Positions 23,536-49,300 of a DNA stretch of 64,000 nt are shown here, piece by piece. The translations under genes were made by a program, and so were the position numbers. Within the stretch, counting starts at the first letter, position 1, and every line of letters begins with the position of its first letter. The stretch covers positions 949,482-1,013,481 of the forward strand of contig OY970195.1 of assembly GCA_963708185.1 (NCBI GenBank). The letters run 5' to 3'. Under the pieces are notes generated by a model. The model did not search any database. It saw only the letters and a list, made by a program, of their open reading frames with translations, and had not been told where the DNA came from. The stretch comes from Candidatus Peregrinibacteria bacterium (GTDB taxonomy: Bacteria > Patescibacteriota > Gracilibacteria > UBA1369).

Positions 23536-24985
23536 TTAGAGCTCTTTCTTCGGGCCAAAACTGCCTTTCGGGTACATATGGAGTTTGGACTTTTTCCAGG
23601 ATTCAATGATCGGCGTGATGAATTTCCATGACGCCAGCACTTCATCGGTGCTGGTAAAGAAAGTCTGGTCACCTTTGATGCAGTCGAAAAGAACGCGCTC
23701 ATAGGCGTCTACGGTTTTGACCGCACTTTTTCCTTCGTTGTAGCTGAAAGAAAGTTCATGCGGTTCAAGAAACGACTGAAGCCCCGGTTTTTTCGCCCAG
23801 AAAAGAATGGAGATTCCCTCTTCGGGCTGGATCTTGAACATGATGACGTTCTTGAAATCGCAGGTTTCATCCTTGGGACACAAATACGCGTTCGAACGCT
23901 TAAAATGTACGATGATTTCGGCCTTGCTTTCCTTCATGGCCTTGCCGCTTTCAAGGTAGAAGGGAACCCCCTTCCAGCGCTGATTGTTGATGAACGCTTT
24001 GATTTTGAAGTAGGTTTCCGTTTTGGAATTCTTGGCCACGGAAGGTTCTTCGCGATAGCCTTCATACTGTCCCCTCACGGTAGAACTCTGGACGTCTTTG
24101 TCTTTGATCGGCATGAGCGCGTTGAGTACCTTGGTCCTCGCGGGACGTACCGTCTGAGCATCGGTGCTCAGCGGGTTTTCCATGGCAATAAGCGCCAGCA
24201 TGCGCAGTATATGATTCTGCCCGACGTCGCGGAGAGCTTCCCACGTTATCGTAAAAAGCTCCTCTTCCTTCAACGTCGAGCTTTTCGTAAATCTTGATTT
24301 CAACTTTTTCAATGTAATCACGGTTCCAGATCGGTTCAAAAAGCAAGTTGGAGAACCTGAACATCATGATGTTCTGCAGTGTTTCCTTTGCCAGATAATG
24401 GTCAATGCGGAAAATCTGTTCTTCGCGAAAAAGTTTCCCGAGCATATGGTCGAGTTTTTTTGCCGATGCATCGTCATGTCCGAAAGGTTTTTCAATGAGG
24501 ATTCTTGTCCAGCCTTCACCATCACTGCAGGCGATGGTCAGACCATAATACGAGAGGTTCTTGAGAATGGTCTGGTAGAGATCCGGCGGAACGGCCAGGT
24601 AAAAAAGTTTGTTGGAGCAGCGCTTGAAACCTTTGGTGTCCATGGCAACGAGTTTCTTCTTGAGGCTCTTATAGCTTTGGGGATCGTCAAAATATCCTTC
24701 GTGGTAGGAAATGGTTTTGAGGAACTTCCTGAACTCGGGGCCTTTGAGGACCGGCAACTTGCGGCGTTTTTGTTCCTGTGTAATGAAATCACGGTATCCT
24801 TCGTCGGACATCGAACGCCTTGAAAAAGCTATGATGCGGAAATTTTTCGGGAGCATCCCTTTTTTATAGAGGTGGAAAAAAGACGGGATGAGTTTGCGGA
24901 TGGACAAATCACCGGTCGCTCCGAAAATGACGACTACCGTCGGCTTGGATGCGGCATACTCTTTTTTTATTTTTTTAATATCCAT
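23536..24985 (-). pseudogene. zwf: Glucose-6-phosphate dehydrogenase interrupted by a single-base frameshift
   Basis: The N-terminal ORF (VVIFGATGDLSIRKL.., RIDHYLAKETLQN, ..RGAFYDNVG) and the C-terminal ORF (ALRDVGQNHILRMLALIAMENP..) are in different frames. They join exactly at the conserved YD..GALRD motif if one base is removed at 24236-24244. Confidence 0.85.
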
Positions 24986-25090
24986 TGAAAATCTGGTGAA
25001 GATACCCGAAGTGCAATACAATTTCCGTGAATTCGTTATATATATACGATTGTTTGCCGCAAGTTACAAGACCCATTTACTACTACTTTC

Positions 25091-27601
25091 TTGAAGAAAT
25101 TTTCTTTCACCCAAGAGTTCAAAGCTTTCCTCAAAAAACACCGCATCGCTTCGATTTTTCTGCTGGCTTTCACCGCGCTGGTGATTTTCGGCATCAGTTT
25201 TTATCTCTACATCGCCTATTTTTTACCGCTTCCCGATGCGCTTATGCAGGACCAGCCCCAGGGCTCCATCAAGATTCTCGACCGCAAAGGACAACTTCTC
25301 TATGAAGTGATCCAGCCTACGGGCGGCAAAAAAACTTTCACGGAACTCACTCAAATTCCCAAAAATTTCGTCAACGCAACCCTGGCCTCTGAAGACATCA
25401 ATTATTATCAGCATGGCGGCGTCGATCTTGTAGCCATCGGCAGAGCGGTCTTTTTCAACGTCAGCGAAGGGAGGATTGTGAGCGGCGCGAGCACGATTAC
25501 CCAGCAGCTCGTCCGCAATCTGCTTGGTTACACCACGGAGCGCGGGTATTCCGAAAAGATCATGGAGGCCATCTATGCCATTCGTCTTTCGAACGTCTAC
25601 TCCAAAGACCAGATTCTCGAACTGTACCTGAACACCATTTATTACGGCAATCTCGCCTACGGTGCGGAATCAGCGGCGCAGGATTATTTCGGGAAACACG
25701 TTTATGATCTGGATCTGGCCGAGTCGTCGTTGTTGGCCGGACTCCCCCAGGCACCTTCCTACTACAATCCTTTCCTTTATATGGACCGTGCAAAAAAACG
25801 CCAGCAGTACGTGCTTGATCAAATGGTCAAATACGGATTCATCGACGATGCCACGTCAAAAGCCGCCGCCGCCGAGCCTTTGAAACTCCGCCAGAATATT
25901 TTTGAAATGAAGGCTCCTCACTTCGTACGGTACGTTCTCAACCAGCTCGGTGATGTCGTCGGCAACAAAAAACTTGAAGAAGGAGGATTCAGCGTGTACA
26001 CGACGCTTGATGAAGACCTTCAGCTGCAAGCCGAACAGATCGTGGCGCAGCAGGTAAAAAGTCTGGGCGACAAACATGTCACCGACGGCGCGTTGCTTTC
26101 ACTTGATCCGAAAACCGGAAAAATCCTGGCATGGGTCGGCAGCGAAAATTATTATAACGACGACATCGACGGCCAGGTCGACATGATCACGGCTCTGCGA
26201 CAACCCGGTTCCTCCATCAAACCACTGATGTATCTGCTCGCTTTGGAAAAAGGATATACGCCGGCAACGGTCCTTGCCGATGTTCCGGTTGAGTTTCAGA
26301 CCGACACAGGGCCTTATGCTCCAAAAAATTACGACCTGGATTTCCACGGCCCGGTGCGCCTGCGCGAGGCGCTGGCAAGTTCGTTCAACGTTCCCGCGGT
26401 CCAGACGCTCAACACGTTGGGGGTTGAAGTTTTCATGGCTTTTCTGGATAAACTCGGCATCCAGACGCTTGACCAGAATCCGAACTTTTACGGTCTCGCT
26501 CTCACGCTTGGAGGAGGCGAAGTGCGTATGTACGACATGGCGCGGGCGTTCAACGTCATCGCGAACTACGGCGATTATTTTGATTTGAGCACGATTGAAA
26601 AAATCACCGACGCCGCCGGGACGAATCTTTATACGTGGAAGCAATCCTCGCCTTCCTACGTTCTCGGGCAGGACGGAAGACAGCACGCGTACCAGATCAT
26701 CGACATTCTCAAAGACCCGAATGCCAGACTGAAAGGTTTCGGTGAGGGAAGCGTCCTGGAAATTTCCCACGAAGCCGCGGTGAAGACCGGGACCACACGC
26801 AACTTCCGCGACAACTGGACGATCGGTTTTACTCCGCAGCTTCTCACCGCGGTGTGGGTCGGCAATGCCGATGCTTCGGCCATGCAGGATATCAGCGGCG
26901 TGGACGGCGCGGGGCCGATCTGGCACGATTTCATGGAAGCCGCGCTGCAGTTTGCGCCCCAGGTAAAATTCAACGTGCCCCCGCGCCTCCATCAGGCGGA
27001 GGTCTGTGCGATCTCAGGAAAACTTCCGACGGACCTTTGTCCCGACCGGATCTTCGAGTGGTTTGTAAAAGGTCAGGAACCAAAGGAACCGGACGATTAT
27101 TATCAAAGTTACTGGGTTTTACGCTCGAACGGGCACCTCATCCGTCCGGAGTGCGTGGACAGCTATCCCGAGGCTGCCCGACTTCAAAAAACCTTTATCA
27201 CCTACCCAGCCGCCTTCCAAAGCTGGGCACAGCAAAAAGGCCTTTCCTTACCGCCTTTTGAGCCCTGTGCGTTATCAAAAACATCGGGTTCGGGATATAC
27301 GGACGCCTACTCCACGCAGGAAAAATCGCTTATTACCGTAGACAGTCCGTCTCATCAGGACCAATTCCAGGTTGACCATGAGCTTCCGGCGGATACTCAG
27401 AAAATACCGTTCCGGGTCACCGCTTCTTCGGATGTCGACGAGATAACTTTTTTGCTGGACGGCAAAGAACTTGCGACGGTGGGGCAACCTTTCAACTATT
27501 TGTGGATTCCCGAGAAAGGGAAACATACCCTTCAAGCCGTTTCACATATTTACAACGGTTCGACGCAGGAAAGTACTCCGGTAACTTTTGACGTTGAATA
27601 A
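25091..27601 (+). CDS. pbpC: Class A penicillin-binding protein, PBP1C-like (GT51 + transpeptidase + C-terminal beta domain)
   Basis: TTG start and an N-terminal TM helix. GT51 motif ASEDINYYQHGGVD. Transpeptidase motifs SSIKP, SFN and KTGTT. The ~120-aa C-terminal extension (..IPFRVTASSDVDEITFLLDGKELATV..YLWIPEKGKHTLQAV) resembles the PbpC C-terminal domain. Confidence 0.85.
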   Translation: MKKFSFTQEFKAFLKKHRIASIFLLAFTALVIFGISFYLYIAYFLPLPDALMQDQPQGSIKILDRKGQLLYEVIQPTGGKKTFTELTQIPKNFVNATLASEDINYYQHGGVDLVAIGRAVFFNVSEGRIVSGASTITQQLVRNLLGYTTERGYSEKIMEAIYAIRLSNVYSKDQILELYLNTIYYGNLAYGAESAAQDYFGKHVYDLDLAESSLLAGLPQAPSYYNPFLYMDRAKKRQQYVLDQMVKYGFIDDATSKAAAAEPLKLRQNIFEMKAPHFVRYVLNQLGDVVGNKKLEEGGFSVYTTLDEDLQLQAEQIVAQQVKSLGDKHVTDGALLSLDPKTGKILAWVGSENYYNDDIDGQVDMITALRQPGSSIKPLMYLLALEKGYTPATVLADVPVEFQTDTGPYAPKNYDLDFHGPVRLREALASSFNVPAVQTLNTLGVEVFMAFLDKLGIQTLDQNPNFYGLALTLGGGEVRMYDMARAFNVIANYGDYFDLSTIEKITDAAGTNLYTWKQSSPSYVLGQDGRQHAYQIIDILKDPNARLKGFGEGSVLEISHEAAVKTGTTRNFRDNWTIGFTPQLLTAVWVGNADASAMQDISGVDGAGPIWHDFMEAALQFAPQVKFNVPPRLHQAEVCAISGKLPTDLCPDRIFEWFVKGQEPKEPDDYYQSYWVLRSNGHLIRPECVDSYPEAARLQKTFITYPAAFQSWAQQKGLSLPPFEPCALSKTSGSGYTDAYSTQEKSLITVDSPSHQDQFQVDHELPADTQKIPFRVTASSDVDEITFLLDGKELATVGQPFNYLWIPEKGKHTLQAVSHIYNGSTQESTPVTFDVE

Positions 27602-27671
27602 ATTGTTGTAATACTTTTTCTGGAGAAATTGTTCTTAAGAGCGGCAAGATTCCGGGAGCCGTGATGACGAT

Positions 27672-27698
27672 GAACTTTTATTGTCTTTTCCTGTCATC
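27672..27698 (+). promoter_or_regulatory. Possible ECF-type (autoregulated) promoter
   Basis: The sequence is tGAACTT..GTCatc, with 17 nt between AAC and GTC, located 39 nt upstream of the sigma gene ATG. It resembles the generic ECF GAAC-N16/17-CGT/GTC pattern. Weak evidence. Confidence 0.3.
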
Positions 27699-27736
27699 AC
27701 CACTACAATTCTCTTTAGCGTTCCGCCCCAAGAACC

Positions 27737-28288
27737 ATGGATCTCCAAGATCAGCAAAAACTCGTTGCCGAAGCCCAGCAAAGTCCCGATGGATTCGGCA
27801 GGCTCTATGATTATTTCTTCCCGAAAGTCTACGCTTTTGTCGCCTCCAAAGTCGGCGACCGTGATGATGCCGAAGACCTCACCAGCGAAATTTTCATGAA
27901 GGTTCTCGAAAACATTCACGCTTATGAATGGAGAGGCATTCCCTTCGGAGGCTGGCTGTTCAAAATCGCACGGAACGTGCTGAACACTTACTATTCCCAG
28001 CACGCAAAGACAACGACCAAAGATATTGATGATGTGTACGGGCTCGCCGAAGACGAAGAAAAAACTTCGCCTCATAAAAAAGCCGCTCAAAACGAACTCT
28101 CAGAAAAGGTAAAAAAAGTCATGCGCGAACTTCCGGAAAGAGAAGTGATGGTTGTCCAACTCAAATTTTTCTCTCAACTCAACAACCGGGAAATTATGCA
28201 CGTTACCGGACTTTCCGAAAGCAACGTCGCGATTATTCTTTTCCGAACCCTGAGAAAAATAAAACCAGAACTTTCTTACTTTGCTTAA
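27737..28288 (+). CDS. ECF (sigma-70 family group 4) sigma factor
   Basis: 183 aa. Region 2 is GFGRLYDYFFPKVYAFVASKVGDRDDAEDLTSEIFMKV. The region 4 HTH is LPEREVMVVQLKFFSQLNNREIMHVTGLSESNVAIILFRTLRKI. Confidence 0.9.
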   Translation: MDLQDQQKLVAEAQQSPDGFGRLYDYFFPKVYAFVASKVGDRDDAEDLTSEIFMKVLENIHAYEWRGIPFGGWLFKIARNVLNTYYSQHAKTTTKDIDDVYGLAEDEEKTSPHKKAAQNELSEKVKKVMRELPEREVMVVQLKFFSQLNNREIMHVTGLSESNVAIILFRTLRKIKPELSYFA

Positions 28289-31200
28289 TCAACGGCCAAT
28301 GTTCTTCAAAAGAAAAAAAATCAGGCAATTGAACCAGATGCTCGACTCGGCCAAAAAACCACGCGACCTGGAAGAAGTGACCCGTGCCATTGAGGACACG
28401 GCGCCGGCTGCCGCTCGACCGGCATTCCAGAAACAACTTCGTCAACAATTACTCCATAAATACCACCCCATGGCCGCCGCCCATAAAGAAAAGAAAACAA
28501 AGGTTCACTCCTCCAATTCCGCACCGATGCGGGGAAAAGGCTGGGCTTTGGCCCTTGCCGTCCTGGTTATCCTCGTCGTTTCGGGCGTTGCCAGTTATCC
28601 GTTGATTCCGGCGCCGGAGGTCCAGGGCTATTCGCTCAAAGACACGGTCCGCAATATTTCCTACAATGCTCCGATCAAGGTCGTGTTCAGCCAGCCGATG
28701 GACCACAGTTCTGTCGAACAGGCTTTCAAGATCGACCCGAATATCGAAGGAACTTTTTCCTGGGAGAACAACAGCCTGCTCTTCATGCCCAAAGAACCTT
28801 TCAAACTCGGCGACAGTTTCAAGGTTTCCGTGAACCAGTCGGCTCGCAGCATTTTCCAGAAACAGCTTCCAGGCGATTACGAAGAGAATTTCGTTATCGT
28901 CGCGGCACCTCAGGTTACGCTGTTCTCCCCGGCGCCTGATTCCGAGGACGTTCCCGTGGACGCCAAACTGACGGTGCATTTTGACCGTCCGATGATCCCG
29001 TTGACGAGCCTTGATCAGGCCAATGAAAAAGCCATCAACATCAACGTCGATCCTCCGATCCAGGGCAAAGCCAAATGGCTCGGAACTTCTTCGATGTCTT
29101 TCATTCCGGACAAACTTGCCTACGCCACCCATTATACCGTGACGATTCCAGCTGGAACCTTGTCCGACGAGGGAGGATCCACCGACAAAGATTTTGTCTA
29201 CAGTTTTGATACCCTGAAACCCGCATTTGAAACTTCCGTTCCGGCCGACCTGGATCCTTTCAACGGACCGAAGACGACAATTGAGCTGACCTTCAACCAG
29301 ATCATGAATCTGGAGAAAGCCGGCGATTATATCAAGATTTACCAGTATGCCGGGAGCGACAAGGACTTCGCCAAAAAAATCCAATGGAACGGGAATGTGT
29401 ATGGGGCTCCATCCAAAAACGCCAAACTGTTGTTGACGGATACCGTCGTTGAACAGACCGACAAAGCGCAGTGGAAAGAAATCGGGAAAACCCTTCACTA
29501 TTATACGGCCGATGAATACAGACAGGATTATCTGAAGGACCAGCCCCAGGATGAGTCCAGTCAGACGCAGCAAATAGATGTTCCCGCGTCCGATGAACTG
29601 CAAAAAACTCTGGTGCTCGCGCCTTCTCAGCCGCTTGCCGAAGACAGTGTTTTCCTTGTCCAGATTCTCAAAGATTTTCCTGGAGCGGAAGGGACGTTCG
29701 GTTTGCCGGATGACCAGTCAATGATCATCAAGACGGTGGGGGCCCTGGATGTTGTTTCGACCTCCCCGGAGAACAACGCAAAAGATGTCCGCGATTCCGT
29801 GGTGAGCGTGACCTTCAACCAGCCCATGGACGAAGCCAGCCTTCAAGACAAAGTGATGATCGAACCGAAGGCGATGGACGACAACAATCAGGAACAGAAA
29901 CCCGAAGTTACGGTTTCCGGCGACGGTCTTGAAATGGACATCCATTATCCTTTCCTGCCTTCAACCAGCTATACCTTGACGGTCAAGCAGGGAGGAAAAA
30001 GTCTCTACGGAAAAAACTATGACAAGGATATCGTTGTCGCTTTCAAAACCGCCCAGCTCGATCCATCGTTCAGTCTGGTGAGCTCCCCGGACATCAGTGT
30101 GCTCGACGCCACGAAACCTCGTGTTTATTACGTAAAATCCACCAACGTCGATTTGCTCCATCTTGAGTTCAAAAAACTTTCCGACGACGAGTTCAATAAT
30201 TTCTACTCCAAAGGGTACGTGGATAACAACTATCGTCCGGACAGCGGATATACGTCTTTTGACGTGACACCGCAACGGGACTTCAACAAGAAGGTCGTCA
30301 CGAAGCTCGATCTGGATAAAGCTCTTGGAACCGCCTTAACTCCGGGCTACTACTATTTTGAAATGACGAGCCCGCAGGTGTTCAACACCGACTACAACGG
30401 CAATCGGCACCCTCAGGTTAATAAGCAGGTTTTCGTGCTGACGAGCAATGCTCTCGCCACGAAACTCAGCCGGAACCAGCTGCTGGTATGGGCGACTTCG
30501 ATGAAAGAAGGTGCTCCCGTGGAGGGGATGAACATCCAAGCAAAAAATACATCCGACGGAACGGTTTACAACGGCACGACGGATAAAGATGGTCTTGTGA
30601 CGTTCCAACTTCCACAAAAAGACAATAATGACTACACGGGTGAATATATGGTGACCGGGCGCGTCGGAGATGACGTGACGCTGACGCACTCGACCTGGTC
30701 GGAAGGCGTGAGCCCGTGGAACTTCAACATTGATTACAGTTCCTACGCCGAAAAGTATTTCGTCTACATGTATACCGACCGTCCGATTTACCGCCCTGGA
30801 GACGCGATCGAGTTCAAAGGACTTGTGCGCATCAACGATGATCTTCATTATTCGCTTCCCGACCGCAGCAAGATTCACGTCTCCGTTCATGATGCCGACG
30901 ACCAAGAGGTGTTCAGCAGGGATATCGACATCAACAAAAACGGAACGTTCAATGGAGAACTTCAGTTGGGGGATCAGGCTTCGACCGGCTACTACCAGAT
31001 TACCGCGTCGCTTGCGGCGGCCGGCGAACCAACATATTCGCATTCTTTTTATCAGAGTTTCCAGGTCGCAGCGTACAGGAAACCCGATTATAAAATGACT
31101 GTCACGCCGGACAAGGATTCCTACGTGAACGGTGAAACGGCAAAGGTGAACGTCAACGGACAGTATTTCTTTGGCGCGCCGCTCGCGAACGCTCCAGTCG

Positions 31201-34200
31201 AGTGGACCGTGAAGAGCCAGGATTATTATTTCTTCCTCCCGGCCGACAGCAAGAGCCCGTATGCGTCGCAATGGTTCAGTTTCAGCGATGAAGGGTACTT
31301 GTGTTTCTGGGGATGCCAGGGTCAAACCGAAGTCATCAGCCAGGGTAAGGGGACCCTTGATGCCAACGGTGATTTTACGGTCAACCTTCCGCTCGACATC
31401 AAGGACAAAAAAGTCAGTCAGTTCTATACGCTTGAAGCCACAGCTTACGATTTGAACCATCAGAGCGTATCCAACCGTTCGACTTTCGCGGTCCATCAGG
31501 GGGAATACTATGCCGGCATCATGAGCCAGGATTACGTTTCTTCAAAGGGCAAGGAGGCGAGCTTCGACGTCATCACCATCGATAAAGACGGCAACCCGGT
31601 TGCCGGAAAAACCGTGGACGTTTCGCTCTACAAACGTGACTGGAACACCATCAAGAAGAAGCAGGTCGACAGCGATTTCTACTATGACAACAACTACACC
31701 GACGTTCTCAAGGAAAAGAAGACGGTGACGACCGACAGCAAAGGGCATGCCACCGTGAGCTTCACTCCGAACGAAGGCGGCGATTATAAAGTGGGGACGG
31801 AATCGACCGACAGCCGGGGCAACAAGATCACATCGGCAACGGAGATCTACGTGACGTCTTCGGACTTCGTGAACTGGGGACAGGAAAACAACGACCGCAT
31901 TGAACTGGTTCCAGACAAGCAGGAATATACGGTCGGCGATACCGCACACATATTGGTGAAGTCGCCGTACCAGAACGTCTATGCGCTGGTAACGTATGAA
32001 CGCGCTGATGTGGTCTCCAAGAAGGTGATAAAGATCACTTCGAATTCCCAGACCATTGACGTGCCGATTACCGAGGACGCGCTTCCCAACGAGTTCGTTT
32101 CGGTACTGTTGGTCAAAGGCAACAATACTTCCGCCGGACTGCAGGATCCCGGGACTGAAGTCGACGAACGCGACGTCGCCGCATTCAAACTCGGATATAC
32201 AACATTGCAAATCAATACATCAACCCGCAAGCTCGGCATCGAGGTAACAAGCGACCAGCAAAAATATCATCCCGGTGACAATGTGGATTTGAAGGTTCGT
32301 ACGGTCGACGCTTCGGGCAAGCCCGTGAAAGCCGAGGTTTCGATCAGCGTGGTGGACGAGAGCGTTCTTTCGTTGACCGACAACGTCACCGCGGATCTCC
32401 TCACCGAGTTTTACCGCAAGCGTTACCTTGGCGTCGAGACTTCAGAAACCTTGACCAAAGCGTTGTCGCGTTTGAACGTCCAGGTGGAATCGGGTCTCAA
32501 GGGAGGAGGAGGAGGAACGCCGGCAAAACGCGGAACGTTCAAAGATACCGCATACTGGGAAGCCGACGTGAATACCGACGCCAACGGTATGGGTGAAGTG
32601 AAGTTCAAGCTTCCGGATAATCTGACGACCTGGCAGGTGCTGGCCATCGGCATCACCAACGATACGCTCGTGGGAAGCCAGCGCATGGATTTCGTTGTCA
32701 CGAAAGACGTCCTGGCGCGTCCGGTGCTTCCAAGGTTCCTGATCGTGAACGACAGCATGACGGTCGGAACCGTGGTCCATAACTATCTTGACCATGGCGT
32801 TGACCTGGATGTAGGGCTTCAGGCGAGCGGTGTCACGATCAGCGGCAGCGACAAACAGCGCATCCATCTTGATCCCGGGAAAGAGCAACTCGTGAATTTT
32901 AACGTCACGGTCCAGGACCAGCAGGAGGCCGACCTGACGTTCTCGGCCATTGATGCTTCCGACAGTTCGGTCGGCGATGTCGTGGAGAACAAACTGCCGA
33001 TCCATCCTTTCAGTTTCCCTGAAGTCGTGGCCACATCCGCCGAAGTTACCGACAATAGCCAACACGTGGAAACCGTGTGGCTGCCGACGGGAATCGATCC
33101 GAAGTTCGGCAAACTGACGATTTCGGCGGCTTCGACTTTGGCCGGTACTTTTGCCGACGGCATCCAGTATCTTGTCCAGTTCCCTTACGGCTGCGCCGAA
33201 CAGACCGCGTCTTCTTTGCTTCCGAACCTCGCCGTGAAAGAGCTCTCCAAACTTCCGGGACTTGGCGTCGAAAAACTGATCGATGAAAAACAACTCCAGA
33301 GGAACGTTGAGACCGGCCTGCAGGCTTTATACACATACCAACAAAGCAACGGAGGATGGGGCCTCTGGGAAAATTCCGAACCGACGCCGTATCTGAGCTC
33401 TTATGTGCTTTATACTTTGTACGAAGCGCAAAAGGCAGGGTATAGCGTCGACCAGAACGTCATAAAACGCGGCACCGACTACGTGAAGAACTCGATCAAG
33501 AACCTTCCGCTTTCCAAGGCAAACCGTTCCAATGCCGACAACCGGTCGTTTGCTTTATTCGTCCTCGCCGAGATGCAGCAGGGAGACCTTGGCCTCAGCA
33601 ACAATCTTTATGACTTCAAGGACAACCTCAACCTTTTCGGCAAAGCGTACCTGGTCATGACCTTCGACGACCTTATCAAGCAGCAGTCATTGAGCGGAAG
33701 CGTCAAAGACGACGCCGGGAAAAAAATGGATATGTTGAAAGGCGAGATCCTCAACGTGGCCAAAGAGACTCCGCGAGGTGTTCACTTCGAAGAAACGACC
33801 CCTGAATACACCATGTTCGACACCAACGCCCGCACGACAGCGCTTGTGCTTCAGATGCTTTCGCGCGTGGACAGTTCCAACGTGATGATTCCGAAAATTT
33901 TGAGGAACATGCTCATGGAAAAGAAGGACGGACATTATTCCACGACGCAGGAAACCGCCGTCAGTCTGCTGGCGCTCGCCGATTACCTCAAAGCCAGCAA
34001 AGAGCTCGAGCCGAATTATAACGGAGTCATCACGCTCAACAGCGTGGAAAAACTGAATAAGTCTTTCACGCAAAACAACCTGACTGACGTCCAGACCGTC
34101 GACATTCCTTTGACCGATCTGCTCCCGAACAATCAGGATAACGAGATAACGGCTTCCCGCAGCGGAACCGGCAAGATGTACTTTGATATGAACCTTCAGT

Positions 34201-34712
34201 ACTTCCTGCCGACCGATCAGATCCAGGCTCGCGACGAAGGCATTTTCGTGAACCAGGAATATTTCTCCCTGAACGACAAAAAGATGGAGAATCCGGTCAC
34301 GACGGTGAACGTCGGCGACAACCTCATGGGAAAAATGACCGTGATCGTTCCAGAGGACCGTTACTACGTGATGGTGGAAGATTATCTTCCGGCCGGGCTT
34401 GAAGGCGTAGACTTCAACCTGCAGACTTCTCAACAATCGCTCCAGGATACGCTGGATTCAAGCGGCGACCAGGCTCCGTGCATGAACTGGGATTGCTGGG
34501 AAGAGATGTGGAGATTCAACCATTCCGAGGTCCGGGACGACCGTATGATGTTCTTCGCCGACTACCTTCCCAAAGGCGTCTATGAACTCAAGTATGTCGT
34601 CAGGGCCACCACCGCCGGCACGTTCCATGACCTTCCGGCCCTTGCCCAAGAAACCTACTTCCCCGAGGTATTCGGCCGATCCAGCGGCAGGACATTTACG
34701 GTACTTCCATAG
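28281..34712 (+). CDS. Giant membrane-anchored alpha-2-macroglobulin (thioester protein) with N-terminal cytoplasmic segment and SbsA/Big_5-like Ig repeats
   Basis: 2143 aa from TTG 28281; the first ATG is at 28299. TM helix GWALALAVLVILVVSGVASYPLI (28539-28607). Repeated ..PI.V.FSQPMD.. Ig-like modules. MG-domain motifs DRPIYRPGDAIEFKG, AYRKPDYKMTV and LPDNLTTWQVLA. Thioester FPYGCAEQT (CAEQ at 33192-33203). Confidence 0.9.
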   Translation: MLNQRPMFFKRKKIRQLNQMLDSAKKPRDLEEVTRAIEDTAPAAARPAFQKQLRQQLLHKYHPMAAAHKEKKTKVHSSNSAPMRGKGWALALAVLVILVVSGVASYPLIPAPEVQGYSLKDTVRNISYNAPIKVVFSQPMDHSSVEQAFKIDPNIEGTFSWENNSLLFMPKEPFKLGDSFKVSVNQSARSIFQKQLPGDYEENFVIVAAPQVTLFSPAPDSEDVPVDAKLTVHFDRPMIPLTSLDQANEKAININVDPPIQGKAKWLGTSSMSFIPDKLAYATHYTVTIPAGTLSDEGGSTDKDFVYSFDTLKPAFETSVPADLDPFNGPKTTIELTFNQIMNLEKAGDYIKIYQYAGSDKDFAKKIQWNGNVYGAPSKNAKLLLTDTVVEQTDKAQWKEIGKTLHYYTADEYRQDYLKDQPQDESSQTQQIDVPASDELQKTLVLAPSQPLAEDSVFLVQILKDFPGAEGTFGLPDDQSMIIKTVGALDVVSTSPENNAKDVRDSVVSVTFNQPMDEASLQDKVMIEPKAMDDNNQEQKPEVTVSGDGLEMDIHYPFLPSTSYTLTVKQGGKSLYGKNYDKDIVVAFKTAQLDPSFSLVSSPDISVLDATKPRVYYVKSTNVDLLHLEFKKLSDDEFNNFYSKGYVDNNYRPDSGYTSFDVTPQRDFNKKVVTKLDLDKALGTALTPGYYYFEMTSPQVFNTDYNGNRHPQVNKQVFVLTSNALATKLSRNQLLVWATSMKEGAPVEGMNIQAKNTSDGTVYNGTTDKDGLVTFQLPQKDNNDYTGEYMVTGRVGDDVTLTHSTWSEGVSPWNFNIDYSSYAEKYFVYMYTDRPIYRPGDAIEFKGLVRINDDLHYSLPDRSKIHVSVHDADDQEVFSRDIDINKNGTFNGELQLGDQASTGYYQITASLAAAGEPTYSHSFYQSFQVAAYRKPDYKMTVTPDKDSYVNGETAKVNVNGQYFFGAPLANAPVEWTVKSQDYYFFLPADSKSPYASQWFSFSDEGYLCFWGCQGQTEVISQGKGTLDANGDFTVNLPLDIKDKKVSQFYTLEATAYDLNHQSVSNRSTFAVHQGEYYAGIMSQDYVSSKGKEASFDVITIDKDGNPVAGKTVDVSLYKRDWNTIKKKQVDSDFYYDNNYTDVLKEKKTVTTDSKGHATVSFTPNEGGDYKVGTESTDSRGNKITSATEIYVTSSDFVNWGQENNDRIELVPDKQEYTVGDTAHILVKSPYQNVYALVTYERADVVSKKVIKITSNSQTIDVPITEDALPNEFVSVLLVKGNNTSAGLQDPGTEVDERDVAAFKLGYTTLQINTSTRKLGIEVTSDQQKYHPGDNVDLKVRTVDASGKPVKAEVSISVVDESVLSLTDNVTADLLTEFYRKRYLGVETSETLTKALSRLNVQVESGLKGGGGGTPAKRGTFKDTAYWEADVNTDANGMGEVKFKLPDNLTTWQVLAIGITNDTLVGSQRMDFVVTKDVLARPVLPRFLIVNDSMTVGTVVHNYLDHGVDLDVGLQASGVTISGSDKQRIHLDPGKEQLVNFNVTVQDQQEADLTFSAIDASDSSVGDVVENKLPIHPFSFPEVVATSAEVTDNSQHVETVWLPTGIDPKFGKLTISAASTLAGTFADGIQYLVQFPYGCAEQTASSLLPNLAVKELSKLPGLGVEKLIDEKQLQRNVETGLQALYTYQQSNGGWGLWENSEPTPYLSSYVLYTLYEAQKAGYSVDQNVIKRGTDYVKNSIKNLPLSKANRSNADNRSFALFVLAEMQQGDLGLSNNLYDFKDNLNLFGKAYLVMTFDDLIKQQSLSGSVKDDAGKKMDMLKGEILNVAKETPRGVHFEETTPEYTMFDTNARTTALVLQMLSRVDSSNVMIPKILRNMLMEKKDGHYSTTQETAVSLLALADYLKASKELEPNYNGVITLNSVEKLNKSFTQNNLTDVQTVDIPLTDLLPNNQDNEITASRSGTGKMYFDMNLQYFLPTDQIQARDEGIFVNQEYFSLNDKKMENPVTTVNVGDNLMGKMTVIVPEDRYYVMVEDYLPAGLEGVDFNLQTSQQSLQDTLDSSGDQAPCMNWDCWEEMWRFNHSEVRDDRMMFFADYLPKGVYELKYVVRATTAGTFHDLPALAQETYFPEVFGRSSGRTFTVLP

Positions 34713-34801: not shown

Positions 34802-35470
34802 ATGAAAAAAAAGAATAAAGAAAAATCTCTACGCAAAGAAATCCTGCGGAAACTTTTTCATCTGATGGAGGTGCCTGTTCTTATCGGTTACACCATCATC
34901 AGGCATTATTTCAATGAACGTCTCGCCACGCTCATCATCACCGTGCTTTTTCTCCTGCTGCTTGAAATCGAGTACATCCGTCTGGAATACCACCCAAAGA
35001 TCCCGGAAATGTTTGACGTCCTCCGCCATAAAGAACAAAACAACATTACCGGAACGATTTTTTTCATCGCCGCCACGATCATCGTGTTTGCGGCCTTTGA
35101 TTATCCTATCGCGGTGACGGCTCTTCTGCTGACGGTGTTCGGAGATCTCGCGGCGGCGCTGGTCGGCATCAAGTTCGGAACGATCTTTCTTCACAAGGAT
35201 AAAACCCTTCAGGGACTCTTGGCCGGCTTTACGATGAACTGCGTCATCGGGTATCTTTTTCTTCCCGACTACCCGCTCATTTTTATTCCAATGGCGGTGG
35301 TGGCGAGCGTCGTGGAACTGCTTACCGGCAAACTTGACGATAACCTGACCGTCCCTCTTTTTTCAGCATTCACGGGCCAGATTATGGCATACCTCACCAA
35401 CGCTCCCCTCACGACTTTCCCGGGACACGCCGTGGGATCGATCCTGAATTTCTTTGTCAATTTCCATTGA
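34802..35470 (+). CDS. CTP-dependent polyprenol/dolichol/phytol kinase-like membrane protein (CTP_transf_1 superfamily)
   Basis: 222 aa with ~6 TM segments. It has the N-terminal LRKEILRKLFH (RK..H) motif and the C-terminal VFGDLAAALVGIKFG motif seen in the SEC59/VTE5/DGK1-type kinase family. Assignment from memory. Confidence 0.5.
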   Translation: MKKKNKEKSLRKEILRKLFHLMEVPVLIGYTIIRHYFNERLATLIITVLFLLLLEIEYIRLEYHPKIPEMFDVLRHKEQNNITGTIFFIAATIIVFAAFDYPIAVTALLLTVFGDLAAALVGIKFGTIFLHKDKTLQGLLAGFTMNCVIGYLFLPDYPLIFIPMAVVASVVELLTGKLDDNLTVPLFSAFTGQIMAYLTNAPLTTFPGHAVGSILNFFVNFH

Positions 35471-41355: not shown

Positions 41356-43467
41356 TTATTTGGAAGTTTTTCTTGTGACACCGTTCCAGTCCGCTGGAGG
41401 CGGAAAATTTGAGTATATCTCGGAACGTTCAACATAAAGCTTTGTTGGTCCGTCGTCCGGATAAGCCTTGAGGATTTCTGTGAATTTTCCGTGGGCCTCT
41501 TTGAATTTTCGTGAGTGGAACAGAACCATGGCTTCATTATATTGCTGGAGGAGTTTCACGGCGTCCGCTGGCAATTCTCCTTTTGGAGCCAGCAGTTCGA
41601 ACACCTTGATCGGTTCGGTTTTCCCAACAACGAGGATGGTGTCAAGTTCGCGGGTCTCAAACTGGTCTTTAATGATGCCATACGTACTCTGACTCATCAT
41701 AATGTGCGTTTCGTACTCCTTGTTCTGGCTTTCCAGGCGCGCACCAAGATTCACCACGTCGCCGAGGGCCGTGTAGTCAAAACGTTCGGTCGATCCCATG
41801 TTCCCCACAATGGCTTCGCCCGAACTCAATCCGCAGCGGAAGTCAATTTCGGGCTTTGGTTCTCCGCCGGGAAGCGGCGGATCTTTTTTCCACTTTTCAA
41901 GAAGTTCGTTGAGCTTGAGGCGCATTTTGAGCGCCGCGCGAGCGGCGCGGACGGCATGATCCTGTTGCGACACCGGTGCGCCGAACAACGCCATGATTCC
42001 ATCCCCTTCAAACTTGTCCACCGTCCCGCCTTCTTCCATGATGACCCGGGACATGGCTTCGAAATACTCGCTGAGGAGGGCCACCACGCTCTGCGGTTTT
42101 AATTTTTCTTCGATAGTGGTGGAATGGGCGATGTCCGTGAACATCACGGTGATGTTGCGGCTTTCCCCGCCGAGTTTGAGGCTTTCCGGGTGCTCGGAAA
42201 TCTGTTTCACCAGCGCCGGATTCACGTACTTGCCGAAAGCTTTTTGCAGCTCGAGTTTTTCACGGAATTCCGTGACGTAGCGGTAGAGGTACACGGCGAT
42301 AAAGGTCACGGCGACGACAAGGTAGGGATGCACGAGGTCGGGAATGATTCCGATGTTAAAAAGCGGTTTTGCTGTGAACGAATAGGCGACCGGCACCCCA
42401 AAAAGGTAGAGCAGCGACCAGCGGATTTTGGTGAACATGAAGGTGAAGGCCGCGGTAAAGGCCAGGATCAGGATGAGCAAAGCCTGTTCCGGAAAGCTGA
42501 AATTGCGGAGAAATTTTTGTTCGAGAATAGTCTGGAGCGCGTTGGCGTGGATTTCGATGCCGGTCATCTGATCTTTTTTGCTCATCGGAGTGAGCTGGAA
42601 ATCCTTGAAATATGATGAAGTGGGACCTATGAGAACGATCTTGTCTTTGAAGAGTTTTTCGGGATCCGTTGAAGAGTAATTTTCATTATAAACGTCGACG
42701 AAAGGAATCGACGCGTAAGATTCCGTTCCCGGTTGCGTGGCATAGTTCACGTACATTTGTCCTTCCTGAAGCGGAATATTCACCGTGTTTCCGTTTTGTA
42801 GTTTGATCTGGTATTGGGTCGGAGACACCAAAGGAGTTGAAGGCTTATTTTGGGCGTTGAGTGCAATTCTGGCTATCGTTAAAGCAAAGCTTTCATAATA
42901 GGTTCCGTCGGGATTTACAAGAATCGGCAAAATTTTCCTGATGGCGTTATCCGCATCAGGGATAACCTTAGCCATACTGATTTTGATGTTTTCAAGTTGA
43001 TTGAAAAGATCGAGTGGCAGTTCAAACGGAAAAATATTCGGATCCTGGATGTAGTACCCTCTTTGGTCGTAGCTGGTGGATGATCCCCAGTAAATAATGA
43101 CTGGATTTTTGGTATTCTGGAGGGCTTCTTTGAACTGTTCATCTTTTTGTTGATCTTTGGCTGACTTGAAAAAGAAGTCGAACGCCACGACTTTCGGATT
43201 ATATTTATCAATATTGTTGAGTACCTTAGCAAAATTATCGCGCTGCCAGTTCTCGTAGGAACCGAGGCCTGTGCTGTCGCTTAATGATTTATCGTCGATG
43301 GTCACAACTGTTATATCGCTGCTCGGAGACCTTTGGCTATACAGCAAGTCTCCCAACCGCAACTGCCATGCAGCGAGCACATTAGTATATGCGAGAATTA
43401 ACGTTACGATTGCCGCAGTGGTTCCAAAAATGAGGGCAAACGCCTTTTTATTTTTGAGAAATTTCAT
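41356..43467 (-). CDS. CHASE2 sensor / class III adenylate-guanylate cyclase with C-terminal helical (TPR-like) tail
   Basis: CHASE2 motif DITVVTIDDKSL..NWQRDNFAKVL..VVAFDFFF, then 3 TM segments. The cyclase core is ITVMFTDIAHSTTIEEKL..KFEGDGIMALFGAP..VNLGARLES. The start is set at ATG 43467 (MKFLKNKK). Confidence 0.85.
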   Translation of the reverse strand: MKFLKNKKAFALIFGTTAAIVTLILAYTNVLAAWQLRLGDLLYSQRSPSSDITVVTIDDKSLSDSTGLGSYENWQRDNFAKVLNNIDKYNPKVVAFDFFFKSAKDQQKDEQFKEALQNTKNPVIIYWGSSTSYDQRGYYIQDPNIFPFELPLDLFNQLENIKISMAKVIPDADNAIRKILPILVNPDGTYYESFALTIARIALNAQNKPSTPLVSPTQYQIKLQNGNTVNIPLQEGQMYVNYATQPGTESYASIPFVDVYNENYSSTDPEKLFKDKIVLIGPTSSYFKDFQLTPMSKKDQMTGIEIHANALQTILEQKFLRNFSFPEQALLILILAFTAAFTFMFTKIRWSLLYLFGVPVAYSFTAKPLFNIGIIPDLVHPYLVVAVTFIAVYLYRYVTEFREKLELQKAFGKYVNPALVKQISEHPESLKLGGESRNITVMFTDIAHSTTIEEKLKPQSVVALLSEYFEAMSRVIMEEGGTVDKFEGDGIMALFGAPVSQQDHAVRAARAALKMRLKLNELLEKWKKDPPLPGGEPKPEIDFRCGLSSGEAIVGNMGSTERFDYTALGDVVNLGARLESQNKEYETHIMMSQSTYGIIKDQFETRELDTILVVGKTEPIKVFELLAPKGELPADAVKLLQQYNEAMVLFHSRKFKEAHGKFTEILKAYPDDGPTKLYVERSEIYSNFPPPADWNGVTRKTSK

Positions 43468-43476
43468 ACAACGCAA

Positions 43477-43530: not shown

Positions 43531-45306
43531 TTAAGCCTTTTTTCTGCTTTTTCGGCGGGTAATCACCGCACCAAGTCCGGCCGCCATTAACAGCAGAGCC
43601 ATATTGTTTGCCGTATGATCCTGGACTTCCGTACAGGAACAGCCCGGGTCCTGCACTGGCGGAACGGTTTTGAATTTCTTGGGATCGTCAGCGACTTCTC
43701 CGGTGCTCAATTCACGATACATCGTTACACCAGCTGGAATAAGCCCTTTTTCACTTGAACCGGGAGCTGTGAAATCTACCGGATTGCAGTTATTCACTGT
43801 GGCATTTGTTGGTGTACAGTTTTGATCATAGGCGCGTTGTGCGCCTTCAACGGTTGTATAAGCAACAATGTCGAACTGTCCTTTCGCTTTGTTGGGGTTA
43901 AGAGAATCTGGGTAGGTAACTGTTGTGTGTGTTCCTTCAAAGCCAAGGGTTATACCACTTTCATTACTGATAATTTTATCGGCTTCTGTTGGCGGTTCAC
44001 TGTCTTCATGGGCCAGGCCGATTGAGACCTCAGACATATTTGGCTCAGAAAAATTGAAACTGCCCTGACCCTCGGTAAAGTTGAAGGTTTTATTGCCGAT
44101 CTGGACGGTTGCCGGTCCTTGCACCTGGGCATTGAGCTGGGTATCCGAACAGTCTTTGATCGTGATGTTTTCCGGATTATTGGTTACTTGGGCAAAGCAA
44201 CCCGGAGCGCCACCGTCACCGCCGGCGCCACCGTCAGAGCCACCACCTCCGTCGGTTCCCGCGTCTCCACCTGCGCCATCCGTTCCTGCATCGGTAGTGC
44301 CTGTTTTCATCGTCGCCCATTTGATTGTGCCGTTGTCTCCATACCACAGGTCTCCGGAGCTATCTTTGAATAATGTTCCCTGGGTGTTCGCGTCATTCAC
44401 TGTGGCGCTTCCTGAAATTGCATTCAGGTTCGTCACTCCGCCTGAACAGTTTGTTCCGTTCCAGCCTCCGTTATAGACCATTAAATCCAGACTCCCCAAT
44501 GTTCCTGTTCGGTCTGAACCTACATAAAAATCGTTCGTGTCTACGAAAATTCCATAGGTATCTTTCGTCAAATCGCTGCAGCTTGTTAATTCGCTCCATG
44601 TCCATGTCCCGATCACCGCTGTGTGGATTCTCTTATTGCTGCTTGAGATATCCGAACTTGCATAAATGTTCGTTCCTCCACTGTCGCATGCCACATTGTT
44701 CACGTTCGCTCCATCGTCATTTAATGTCCCGGGCACTGCTGCTAAACCGCTCACCACTCCACCTGACCATGTTCCTTCGTACAACTTACTGGAGAGACCA
44801 TCTCTTTCAGATACTACATAGGCTTTCCCTCCACACACTTTGAAATCAAATTCATTAAAACCTGAATTTGCTCCAGATACCGGGGTCAACGTTGGGCTGT
44901 TCCATGTCGCCCCTCCGTCCGATGAACCTATTTTTTTTATGTCCCCACTTTCAACTATGTACAACGTGATATTTGGTCCAGATCTTTCTACATAGGCTAT
45001 GTTTGCATTTACACCCAAACTCGGTACCGTCGGGGAATTCCACCCGCTCGCTAACGCTTCACTCGTTTGTCCAAGACGTTCCTGTCCGTTGCCCGACTCG
45101 CAACCCTGGAGGGCTGGAGGCAATAATGCCCCAAACGTCACTCCTCCGGCCAACAATAAAGCATTGCGGATGGCTTTGCGTCCTGCAAACGGTTGTAAAA
45201 TATTTTGACGATCAGATTTTTGGGTACGGGATACTTCTTTGTTCTCCGGGCTCCCGCTGAGTCGGTCTTTTGCCATAAGGGGAAAGGTAAAAGAAGTGGT
45301 GTCCAT
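43531..45306 (-). CDS. Tandem surface lipoprotein paralog C (Asp-box beta-rich domain, Gly/Asp linker, C-terminal sorting-like tail)
   Basis: The start is set at ATG 45306 (MDTTSFTF..), 5 nt after the stop of paralog B. Features: lipobox-like ALQGC, Asp-box SSDGGATW, and C-terminus ..PGCSCTEVQDHTANNMALLLMAAGLGAVITRRKSRKKA. Confidence 0.8.
   Translation of the reverse strand: MDTTSFTFPLMAKDRLSGSPENKEVSRTQKSDRQNILQPFAGRKAIRNALLLAGGVTFGALLPPALQGCESGNGQERLGQTSEALASGWNSPTVPSLGVNANIAYVERSGPNITLYIVESGDIKKIGSSDGGATWNSPTLTPVSGANSGFNEFDFKVCGGKAYVVSERDGLSSKLYEGTWSGGVVSGLAAVPGTLNDDGANVNNVACDSGGTNIYASSDISSSNKRIHTAVIGTWTWSELTSCSDLTKDTYGIFVDTNDFYVGSDRTGTLGSLDLMVYNGGWNGTNCSGGVTNLNAISGSATVNDANTQGTLFKDSSGDLWYGDNGTIKWATMKTGTTDAGTDGAGGDAGTDGGGGSDGGAGGDGGAPGCFAQVTNNPENITIKDCSDTQLNAQVQGPATVQIGNKTFNFTEGQGSFNFSEPNMSEVSIGLAHEDSEPPTEADKIISNESGITLGFEGTHTTVTYPDSLNPNKAKGQFDIVAYTTVEGAQRAYDQNCTPTNATVNNCNPVDFTAPGSSEKGLIPAGVTMYRELSTGEVADDPKKFKTVPPVQDPGCSCTEVQDHTANNMALLLMAAGLGAVITRRKSRKKA
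44341..45093. repeat. 753-bp block in paralog C, near-identical to 48263..49015 in paralog A
   Basis: Compared line by line at offset 3922. I saw one mismatch (45070 t versus 48992 c). Confidence 0.85.
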
Positions 45307-45614
45307 CTTGTTTAATCCTTTTTGCGGCGGCGCATTACAGACGCAAGGCCGAGCGCCAAGAGGATGAAACTCAAATTGTTGCGGGTTGAACCAACGTGAT
45401 CGGAAACCGAGCATCCTCCGCCGTTATCCGTGTTACTTTGGACGGGGGGAAGGGTGTTGAATTTGCTTGGATCATCGGCAAGTTTGCCGGTGGCAAGTTC
45501 ACGGTACATCGTGGTTCCGGCAGGAATCTCGCCTTTTTCAGATGAACTCTGAGCCGTGAAATCTACGGGAGTACAGTTCGCCACTGAGTTATTCTCCGGT
45601 TTGCAGGTGTTGTC
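45098..45614. repeat. 517-bp direct repeat, copy 1 (3' end of B + spacer + 5' leader of C)
   Basis: Identical by eye to 46990..47506 at offset 1892. The boundaries were found at mismatches 45097/46989 and 45615/47507. Confidence 0.85.
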
Positions 45615-47198: not shown

Positions 47199-47506
47199 CT
47201 TGTTTAATCCTTTTTGCGGCGGCGCATTACAGACGCAAGGCCGAGCGCCAAGAGGATGAAACTCAAATTGTTGCGGGTTGAACCAACGTGATCGGAAACC
47301 GAGCATCCTCCGCCGTTATCCGTGTTACTTTGGACGGGGGGAAGGGTGTTGAATTTGCTTGGATCATCGGCAAGTTTGCCGGTGGCAAGTTCACGGTACA
47401 TCGTGGTTCCGGCAGGAATCTCGCCTTTTTCAGATGAACTCTGAGCCGTGAAATCTACGGGAGTACAGTTCGCCACTGAGTTATTCTCCGGTTTGCAGGT
47501 GTTGTC
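46990..47506. repeat. 517-bp direct repeat, copy 2 (3' end of A + spacer + 5' leader of B)
   Basis: Partner of 45098..45614. Confidence 0.85.
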
Positions 47507-49216: not shown

Positions 49217-49242
49217 ACTTGATAAAATTAAAGAAGTATTGC

Positions 49243-49272
49243 ATTATATGCTTATACCTTTAATTTTGTCAA
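49243..49272 (-). promoter_or_regulatory. Consensus sigma70 promoter of the paralog A-B-C operon
   Basis: The minus strand reads TTGACA (49272-49267), an 18-nt spacer, then TATAAT (49248-49243), 27 nt upstream of the ATG at 49216. Confidence 0.65.
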
Positions 49273-49300
49273 GGTTTTCCGAGTGAAAAACTAATGACAG

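Follow-up and report, generated by a model that had tools for sequence, protein, structure and literature searches.

An alpha-2-macroglobulin with a putative anti-sigma N-terminus encoded beside an ECF sigma factor gene in a Candidatus Peregrinibacteria genome

The stretch of DNA analyzed here (64,000 nucleotides of contig OY970195.1 from a Candidatus Peregrinibacteria bacterium, hereafter the window) contains a gene for a sigma factor of the extracytoplasmic function (ECF) type, situated between pbpC, i.e. the gene for penicillin-binding protein 1C (PBP1C), and a gene for a very large alpha-2-macroglobulin (A2M). The first 57 residues of the A2M make up a conserved module, predicted to lie in the cytoplasm, that is either present together with the sigma gene or absent together with it. 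We consider it probable, at about 0.68, that this module sequesters the sigma factor at the membrane and that the A2M ectodomain is the sensor, or in other words that the two proteins constitute an ECF sigma/anti-sigma pair. As sigma and module are always gained or lost together, the protease trap itself is probably the sensor that controls the sigma factor. The features on which this reading is built are listed below, with positions in the window and lengths in amino acids (aa). Loci and proteins used for comparison are denoted by L and P numbers, respectively.

25091..27601, plus strand: pbpC, penicillin-binding protein 1C (TIGR02073 with 541 bits, cut-off 494; Pfam Transgly, Transpeptidase and BiPBP_C)
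27737..28288, plus strand: ECF (group IV) sigma factor of 183 aa with a BldN-like sigma-2 domain (Pfam regions 2 and 4, TIGR02937)
28299..34712, plus strand: A2M of the thioester type, 2,137 aa, start codon ATG (Pfam domains)
28299..28469, plus strand: A2M residues 1-57, predicted cytoplasmic three-helix module, putative anti-sigma domain (conservation and AlphaFold2 (AF2) model)
28470..28535, plus strand: A2M residues 58-79, variable disordered juxtamembrane linker (13% identity; model confidence, pLDDT, below 50 at residues 69-72)
28536..28598, plus strand: A2M residues 80-100, single predicted transmembrane (TM) helix, N-in/C-out (AF2 helix 80-98; positive-inside charge)
28599..34712, plus strand: A2M ectodomain of ~2,035 residues with three Big_5 domains, MG domains, bait region, thioester domain and bMG10 (Pfam)
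31899-32375, plus strand: A2M bait region (Pfam domain coordinates)
33192..33203, plus strand: thioester motif CAEQ, residues 1632-1635, within FPYGCAEQTASS (sequence)

Joint occurrence of the sigma gene and the A2M module

An A2M of 2,100-2,200 aa was found directly 3' of every sigma orthologue examined, at sigma identities ranging from 85% to 44% and with gaps of 0-23 nucleotides (nt). Fourteen loci with readable DNA harbor both the sigma gene and the module (L002, L004, L005, L006, L010-L014, L016, L021, L023, L024 and the P0054 locus), three harbor neither (L017, L018 and L022), and none is discordant. The recurrence of the pairing is far beyond chance, no examined context of a sigma orthologue being without it, and the idea in the original prediction that A2M orthologues might keep the sigma neighbor and the cytoplasmic extension jointly was thereby borne out. 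The module-less A2Ms of L017, L018 and L022 (protein P0131) have a short, signal-peptide-like N-terminus and no sigma gene upstream, and in L017 and L022 the A2M gene is immediately preceded by pbpC. Four contexts were furthermore forecast from the N-terminus alone: P0130, P0128 and P0126, which have the module, each turned out to have an ECF sigma gene directly upstream, and the module-less P0131 had none. As a side observation, the A2M frame in L018 (657-896) stops after 79 codons under code 11 (..FTQLMD*) and the tblastn match runs on to the end of the contig, something that could be due to a frameshift or to a variant genetic code in which UGA stands for Gly, as it does in Gracilibacteria.

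In a rough neighbor-joining tree based on 830 ectodomain columns, L017 groups within the clade that has the module and L022 forms a deep branch apart from it, which implies at least two independent events. The sigma gene is preceded by pbpC in most loci, with a beta-lactamase/Peptidase_S11-like gene instead in L006 and a two-component system instead in L021; consequently, the link between sigma and A2M is tighter than the classical one between pbpC and A2M. Locus L019 has a sigma gene, its product 28-31% identical to that of the window, which overlaps a full A2M gene by 8 nt. This A2M has a cytoplasmic N-terminus of ~105 residues that cannot be aligned with the module, and an ectodomain no more diverged than those of other deep lineages. 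Among five deep lineages, with ectodomain identities of 35-39%, the two most diverged sigma factors are accompanied by the two most diverged modules, a pattern that fits co-evolution, in a sample too small for significance.

The pairing might also be read in another way, namely that the sigma factor merely activates transcription of the A2M gene (and pbpC), and that the N-terminal tail of the A2M serves in localization, in contacts with the cell-wall machinery or as the extended n-region of a signal anchor, while control over the sigma factor would be exerted otherwise or not post-translationally at all. A single deletion of the adjacent DNA would explain the co-loss, so that co-loss is weaker evidence for a sigma/anti-sigma pair than it may seem, and the number of loss events is just 2-3. 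The TM helix and the motif that follows it are, moreover, common to the sigma-less A2Ms, which have ordinary short N-termini of the signal-peptide type. Against this alternative, neither a tail without sigma nor a sigma without tail occurs in any of the 17 loci, the tail is swapped together with the sigma factor in L019, and no other small membrane gene is found beside sigma in any locus. If its role were tied to A2M or PBP1C, the tail should in addition still be present in L017 and L022, which have pbpC and A2M without sigma, and there it is gone. Taken with the conservation data below, we find it unlikely that sigma is an activator only.

A sigma/anti-sigma pair formed with the A2M would be hard to reconcile with a separate canonical partner, a situation which the original prediction had itself named. 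No alternative partner gene was found beside sigma in any locus examined, and the remainder of the 64-kb window is free of other sigma factors, anti-sigma factors and M50 proteases.

Conservation and anti-sigma character of the module

The module (residues 1-57) has a mean pairwise identity of 44% in 11 orthologues, as compared with 13% for the linker (residues 58-79), whose length also varies. An unconserved N-terminus, reducing the TM helix to a mere signal anchor, had been one of the threats named in the original prediction; the tail is instead clearly constrained, which also speaks against a sigma factor that is an activator only. Invariant in the 11 orthologues are K7, I8, F43, L47 and L51, and nearly invariant are R9, L15, A30, I31, P36 and L52, with the conserved hydrophobic residues F43, L47, L51 and L52 falling on helix 3, the long one. 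In a single orthologue, 16 residues are inserted between helices 1 and 2, as a loop would tolerate. When 1.84 billion representative proteins were searched exhaustively with phmmer, ten matches to the module were found in total and, besides two short fragments (80 and 100 aa), these were confined to the N-termini of A2Ms of 2,100-2,200 aa. Word-indexed searches gave two unrelated matches with the first 300 A2M residues and one fragment with the module profile, very long A2Ms apparently being missed in this way. The module family falls outside Pfam and appears to be undescribed.

The position of the A2M start bears on whether the module belongs to the A2M at all. The sigma stop codon ends at 28288, i.e. 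8 nt inside an open reading frame (ORF) beginning with TTG 28281 and 10 nt before ATG 28299. These positions, originally put forward as a sign of tight coupling, are exact, but the TTG overlap is not kept in the orthologues and the conserved start is ATG 28299, which corresponds to M1 in 11/11 orthologues. It could be argued that the first ~80 codons represent a separate small anti-sigma ORF or an untranslated leader and that the real start is just before the TM helix, as the window has a Met four residues ahead of this helix (APMRGKGW). This internal Met is, however, not conserved, independent gene calls use the ATG that corresponds to the invariant M1, and in each of the 14 loci with the module and readable DNA the frame runs unbroken from M1 past the TM helix into the ectodomain. 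Such an annotation artefact is thus highly improbable and effectively refuted.

The N-terminus lacks a lipobox with Cys and has instead an 80-residue cytoplasmic segment followed by the TM helix, and its basic, helix-prone nature, previously noted together with the missing signal peptide, is reflected in 18 K+R versus 7 D+E and in three helices predicted by AF2 (residues 3-17, 22-34 and 41-62), after which come a disordered linker and the TM helix (80-98). The single TM helix was likewise predicted as before, with ~2,035 rather than about 2050 residues outside. The arrangement is that of membrane-bound ECF anti-sigma factors: the gene is directly 3' of sigma and co-oriented, with gaps of 0-23 nt in the 14 loci, and the product is predicted to be single-pass and N-in.

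At the level of sequence families, several results weigh against an anti-sigma function. When 20 distinct N-termini were scanned, no Pfam anti-sigma family was matched at E<=1, and a search of PDB and Pfam with the module profile yielded nothing above noise, without a match to any PDB chain. The module has no HxxxCxxC zinc motif or other Cys/His motif and, with three predicted helices rather than four, does not conform to the class I anti-sigma domains (zf-HC2, RseA_N, RsdA and other Pfam families). Furthermore, the isolated N-terminal model is poor (pLDDT 64, predicted template modeling score 0.21), which, like the silence of Pfam and PDB, is also what a sigma factor acting solely as an activator would lead one to expect. 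A weak but recurrent signal in favor comes from the NCBIfam model NF052375 ('anti-sigma factor'), which was matched in one register by 6 of 15 N-termini, and was the best match for five of these six, at sub-threshold scores of 14-18 bits (E=0.002-0.03) that are far under the 100-bit cut-off and may be partly driven by the TM helix. Profile comparison with anti-sigma families, which the original prediction had proposed as a check, accordingly did not place the module in any of them. What stands of the proposal of an anti-sigma-like N-terminus is its conservation and its strict co-occurrence with sigma, and what does not is a sequence-based assignment to a known anti-sigma family.

A possible connection to another type of partner was seen in three outgroup loci with the nearest non-orthologous sigma factors, 32-38% identical to that of the window (L007 from 6644, L008 from 6569 and L009 from 6542), where the gene that comes after sigma overlaps it. 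The partners encoded in L008 and L009 are soluble proteins with a glyoxalase/VOC domain. Common to the three partners is a conserved N-terminus, RRSLIEQLDEAV...LRDLPxxxFKxRL (in a longer form ..IEQLDEAV....LRDLPxxxFKxRLxSEL), which is outside every Pfam family and may be an undescribed soluble type of anti-sigma. These N-termini were aligned end to end with the module by hhalign (P=0.0014), a tie that is weak at a probability of 17%.

The sigma factor, its candidate promoter and the proposed circuit

Judging from its profile matches, the 27737-28288 product is a member of the ECF (group IV) sigma-70 family, with hits to Sigma70_r2 (53 bits, E=2.6e-14), Sigma70_r4 (27.6 bits, E=2.1e-6) and TIGR02937 (88 bits, cut-off 42.9). 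These matches, together with those for pbpC and A2M, also upheld the gene identities and ORF placement of the original prediction. The best specific model is that of the BldN family (TIGR02952 / ECF121), in which the sigma factor is not included at 136 bits, the equivalog cut-off being 206 bits. Its closest solved chain is 6dxo_A (BldN), matched in the sigma-2 domain with E=2e-18, the sequence and numbering of which agree with Streptomyces venezuelae BldN as given in PMC6101532. The BldN residues that touch helix 3 of its anti-sigma RsbN (F15, Y19, D20, F48 and L52) are identical in the window sigma, an agreement tempered by their wide conservation in ECF sigma-2 domains generally. The sigma orthogroup is discrete, with ~97 clusters from 100% to 50% identity and then a sharp fall to 37%.

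In the BldN family, an N-terminal pro-extension is proteolytically removed (PMC7826278). The window sigma has no N-terminal extension, since an in-frame TAG lies at 27716-27718. An open in-frame extension of 23-74 codons was found 5' of sigma M1 in eight orthologous loci (L002, L005, L010-L014 and L016), and is also included in many database gene calls (P0026, P0032, P0055, P0067 and others). Seven of the eight begin at a conserved ATG with the peptide M..LS(Y/L)N(F/L), the peptide of L016 being different, and in most of these loci (L013 is an exception) both remaining frames are shut by a stop after 1-17 codons. L012 has CTG where sigma M1 stands. The extension of L002 (9351-9425) corresponds to 27681-27736 in the window, where a homologous peptide lies in another frame. 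The conserved stretch may be a BldN-like pro-sigma extension, or merely conserved promoter DNA (TTGATTATG...TATAAT). A second ECF sigma (195 aa) was moreover encountered in L021 (12355-13699), followed 4 nt later by a hydrophobic, apparently membrane-spanning protein of 250 aa without a family match, and these two look like a conventional sigma/anti-sigma pair.

Three promoter-like elements were located around the sigma gene and pbpC:

25012..25037, plus strand: candidate promoter box TGCAATAC-N15-GTT upstream of pbpC (pattern match, also present in L002 and L011)
27607..27633, plus strand: conserved box TGTAATAC-N16-GTT, candidate autoregulated ECF-type promoter (130 nt upstream of the sigma start)
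27681..27709, plus strand: sigma-70-like promoter TTGTCT-N17-TACAAT (consensus scan, 9/12 matches, a consensus match only)

The last of these has a counterpart, TTGAAT-N17-TACAAT, at the equivalent place in L002. The conserved box has the form TTTGTAATAC(TTTT), usually with GTT 15-16 nt further on, and this two-block pattern is found 107-193 nt upstream of sigma in 9/11 orthologous loci, in intergenic DNA that otherwise has a mean column identity of 37%. The box of L023 has one mismatch, and the sigma-less loci L017, L018 and L022 have no box. In the 64-kb window, TG[CT]AATA[CG]-N15-16-GTT has exactly two matches, both on the plus strand (27607 and 25012), where 0.095 would be expected by chance and 0/200 simulations reached two. 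Two points detract from this, i.e. that the statistics are partly circular, as the pattern was defined after inspection of the same data, and that GTT in L024 follows its box at a spacing of 22. The TGTAATAC-N15-16-GTT box is on these grounds a candidate autoregulatory promoter of sigma, which may also drive pbpC. We take it to resemble the Bacillus ECF -35 elements (TGTAAC or TGCAAC plus a T-tract), with a two-base insertion.

Three other interpretations were rejected. The weak motif GAAC-N17-GTC at 27672, originally suggested as the promoter, is not kept even in L002 and L011, the closest relatives; co-regulation of pbpC with sigma and A2M has some support from the shared box but not from that motif. 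The TGTAATACT sequence was dismissed as an extended -10 element, as the critical -7 base varies (T, C or A) and the final C of the box is kept in 12/13 copies. Lastly, a palindromic repressor site was discarded because only GTA-N-TAC is symmetric, except in the pbpC box of L011.

On the sensor side, the window A2M is by its domain content a type I (thioester) bacterial A2M, with three Big_5 domains and, each above its Pfam cut-off, bMG3, MG2, bMG6, A2M_BRD, A2M, TED_complement and bMG10, i.e. with MG domains, a bait region, a thioester domain with CxEQ (GCAEQ, residues 1631-1635), MG10 and pbpC as neighbor. Those orthologues that are sequenced as far as the motif have kept CxEQ, apart from the sigma-coupled A2M of L006 (2912-9241), in which MPYGHTEALSS replaces FPYGCAEQTASS and the thioester cysteine is lost. 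A SYPLIPAPxVxGY motif following the TM helix is conserved in all A2Ms, including the sigma-less ones.

From these parts we infer the following circuit, including the physical binding of module and sigma, the role of the box as the promoter recognized by sigma, the signal and the mechanism of release. The sigma and A2M genes, being tightly spaced, would be co-transcribed, and the A2M would insert into the membrane N-in/C-out, with its three-helix module (residues 1-57) binding the BldN-like sigma factor and holding it at the membrane. The thioester ectodomain of ~2,035 residues would lie outside the cell, as part of a monoderm-like envelope that has an S-layer. Upon consumption or cleavage of the ectodomain by an attacking protease, the membrane stub would be removed, most likely by regulated proteolysis as for other single-pass anti-sigma factors, and the freed sigma could then transcribe from the TGTAATAC-N15-16-GTT boxes of its own gene and of pbpC, so that the trap would be replenished and the peptidoglycan synthase induced. 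The full chain, i.e. that a protease attack on the complete thioester A2M ectodomain is turned directly into transcription of trap, sigma and peptidoglycan synthase, is put forward tentatively and is possible rather than probable. More than 1,100 residues separate the bait region from the membrane. After a cut in the bait alone, a large stub would remain that is no obvious substrate for a site-2 protease. Also difficult to accommodate is L006, which keeps sigma and module despite its lost thioester cysteine.

Both of these points speak for an alternative in which the module is an anti-sigma responding to something other than protease attack, e.g. to cleavage at V-x-S/YP coupled to export, processing or a conformational change of the A2M, with clearance of the stub, or to general envelope or peptidoglycan stress, in either case giving feedback on A2M production. 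A small-residue pattern (S or G at -1, mostly V, I, L or A at -3) is found directly before YPLIPAP in 11/11 orthologues, and the classical signal-peptide-like N-termini of the sigma-less A2Ms have AxA-type sites at the equivalent place. The anti-sigma RsiV, furthermore, undergoes site-1 cleavage by signal peptidase. Cleavage at the V-x-S/YP site is nevertheless purely conjectural, and as the sigma-less A2Ms conserve the motif just as well, it may simply mark the beginning of the first Ig-like domain. We regard this origin of the signal as quite unlikely.

Relation to known systems and other features of the window

RsbN, the partner of BldN, crosses the membrane once and has an N-terminal domain of three helices joined by variable linkers; it is encoded beside the sigma gene and had no similarity to any anti-sigma factor when discovered (PMC6101532). 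It represents the class III anti-sigma factors, in which helix 3 is clamped between sigma-2 and sigma-4 (PMC6101532). The window system is similar to the Streptomyces RsbN-BldN pair in having a sigma factor nearest to BldN and an adjacent single-pass partner with three predicted helices, the third one long, and a large extracytoplasmic domain. It differs in that the module has no detectable similarity to PDB chains, that the sigma factor scores below the BldN family cut-off, that the ectodomain is a 2,035-residue A2M rather than the 272-residue domain of RsbN, and that the host is a bacterium of the candidate phyla radiation (CPR), not an actinomycete. The likeness to RsbN is a resemblance, not membership.

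In the RsiV-SigV system of Bacillus, Clostridioides and Enterococcus, the anti-sigma ectodomain binds lysozyme, upon which regulated proteolysis takes place and cell-wall protection genes are induced. The logic proposed here is similar, as the receptor for a hostile lytic enzyme would be the anti-sigma ectodomain itself. The sigma factor, however, is of another group, the small and non-covalent ectodomain of RsiV contrasts with a suicide thioester protease trap, and site-1/site-2 proteolysis is hypothetical in our case.

The A2Ms of Escherichia coli and Salmonella are periplasmic lipoproteins with a signal peptide and a lipobox. Like these type I A2Ms and their PBP1C companions, the window locus has a thioester CxEQ, a bait region, the MG/TED/MG10 architecture and pbpC as neighbor; unlike them, it has a sigma gene inserted after pbpC, an N-terminal TM anchor, an 80-residue cytoplasmic module and three extra Big_5 domains. 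In E. coli (ECAM/YfhM) and Salmonella (Sa-A2M), pbpC and a2m are directly adjacent without a regulator between them (PMC5764988). Very large membrane proteins with A2M domains have been described in the CPR bacterium Vampirococcus lugosii, with a proposed role in protection against host proteases, but no sigma link or anti-sigma-like N-terminus was reported there (PMC8080830). Literature searches gave no description of an A2M fused to an anti-sigma module, in line with the original prediction, whose author was not aware of any. Both the components and the principle of regulation are known ones; an A2M in the role of anti-sigma sensor appears to be undescribed.

The structures of bacterial A2Ms have been characterized, while their physiology and regulation are largely unknown and the 'periplasmic defence' by pbpC and A2M is still hypothetical (PMC5764988). 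Many sensor domains are known among ECF anti-sigma factors, and an A2M would add another. If the module binds sigma, the state of the A2M (intact or consumed) would be read out transcriptionally and protease attack would be linked to cell-wall repair, and the module would be a new anti-sigma family beyond Pfam. Sigma factor, 60-residue module and promoter box would then form a defined and portable three-part system, open to tests in E. coli despite the Peregrinibacteria hosts being uncultivated, with the loci with and without sigma and module serving as a natural matched set. Should the reading be true, CPR bacteria would have a one-protein 'innate immune receptor with a transcriptional output', and a first regulatory logic would be provided for the long-noted pbpC-A2M gene pair.

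As for the surroundings of these genes, pbpC and the A2M gene are 697 nt apart on the same strand with the sigma gene alone between them, and the same order is found in the closest genome, a metagenome-assembled genome of Candidatus Peregrinibacteria. One further gene is a possible member of the operon:

34802..35470, plus strand: polytopic membrane protein of 222 aa (no Pfam or NCBIfam match)

The A2M gene is likewise followed in L002, L005, L006, L024 and the P0054 locus by an ORF or called product of 177-218 aa without a strong Pfam match, and in L004 a 216-aa gene lies downstream of it with two small opposite-strand genes between, a comparison of size and position, not of homology. Polytopic membrane genes of ~215 aa are located 3' of the A2M gene in most loci, mostly with nothing in between, e.g. 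at 16553-17209 in L002, 8636-9286 in L004 and 9245-9898 in L006. The L006 gene has a weak match to CTP_transf_1, the sole family signal on record. The downstream membrane gene may belong to the same operon as A2M and could encode a polyprenol- or lipid-related enzyme.

The remaining genes of the window encode S-layer-homology proteins and functions in sugar metabolism and the cell envelope. Four consecutive large ORFs without a Pfam match occupy 43531-50527 on the minus strand. Glucose-6-phosphate dehydrogenase (G6PD) is split over two overlapping ORFs on the minus strand (23536-25021), with G6PD_N and the first 43 positions of G6PD_C in 24062-25021 and the rest of G6PD_C in 23536-24339, i.e. 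a frameshift that indicates either a pseudogene or a sequencing error. Lastly, an adenylate/guanylate cyclase of 705 aa with a CHASE2 domain is encoded at 41356-43476 on the minus strand, an unusual finding for a small genome of the CPR type.

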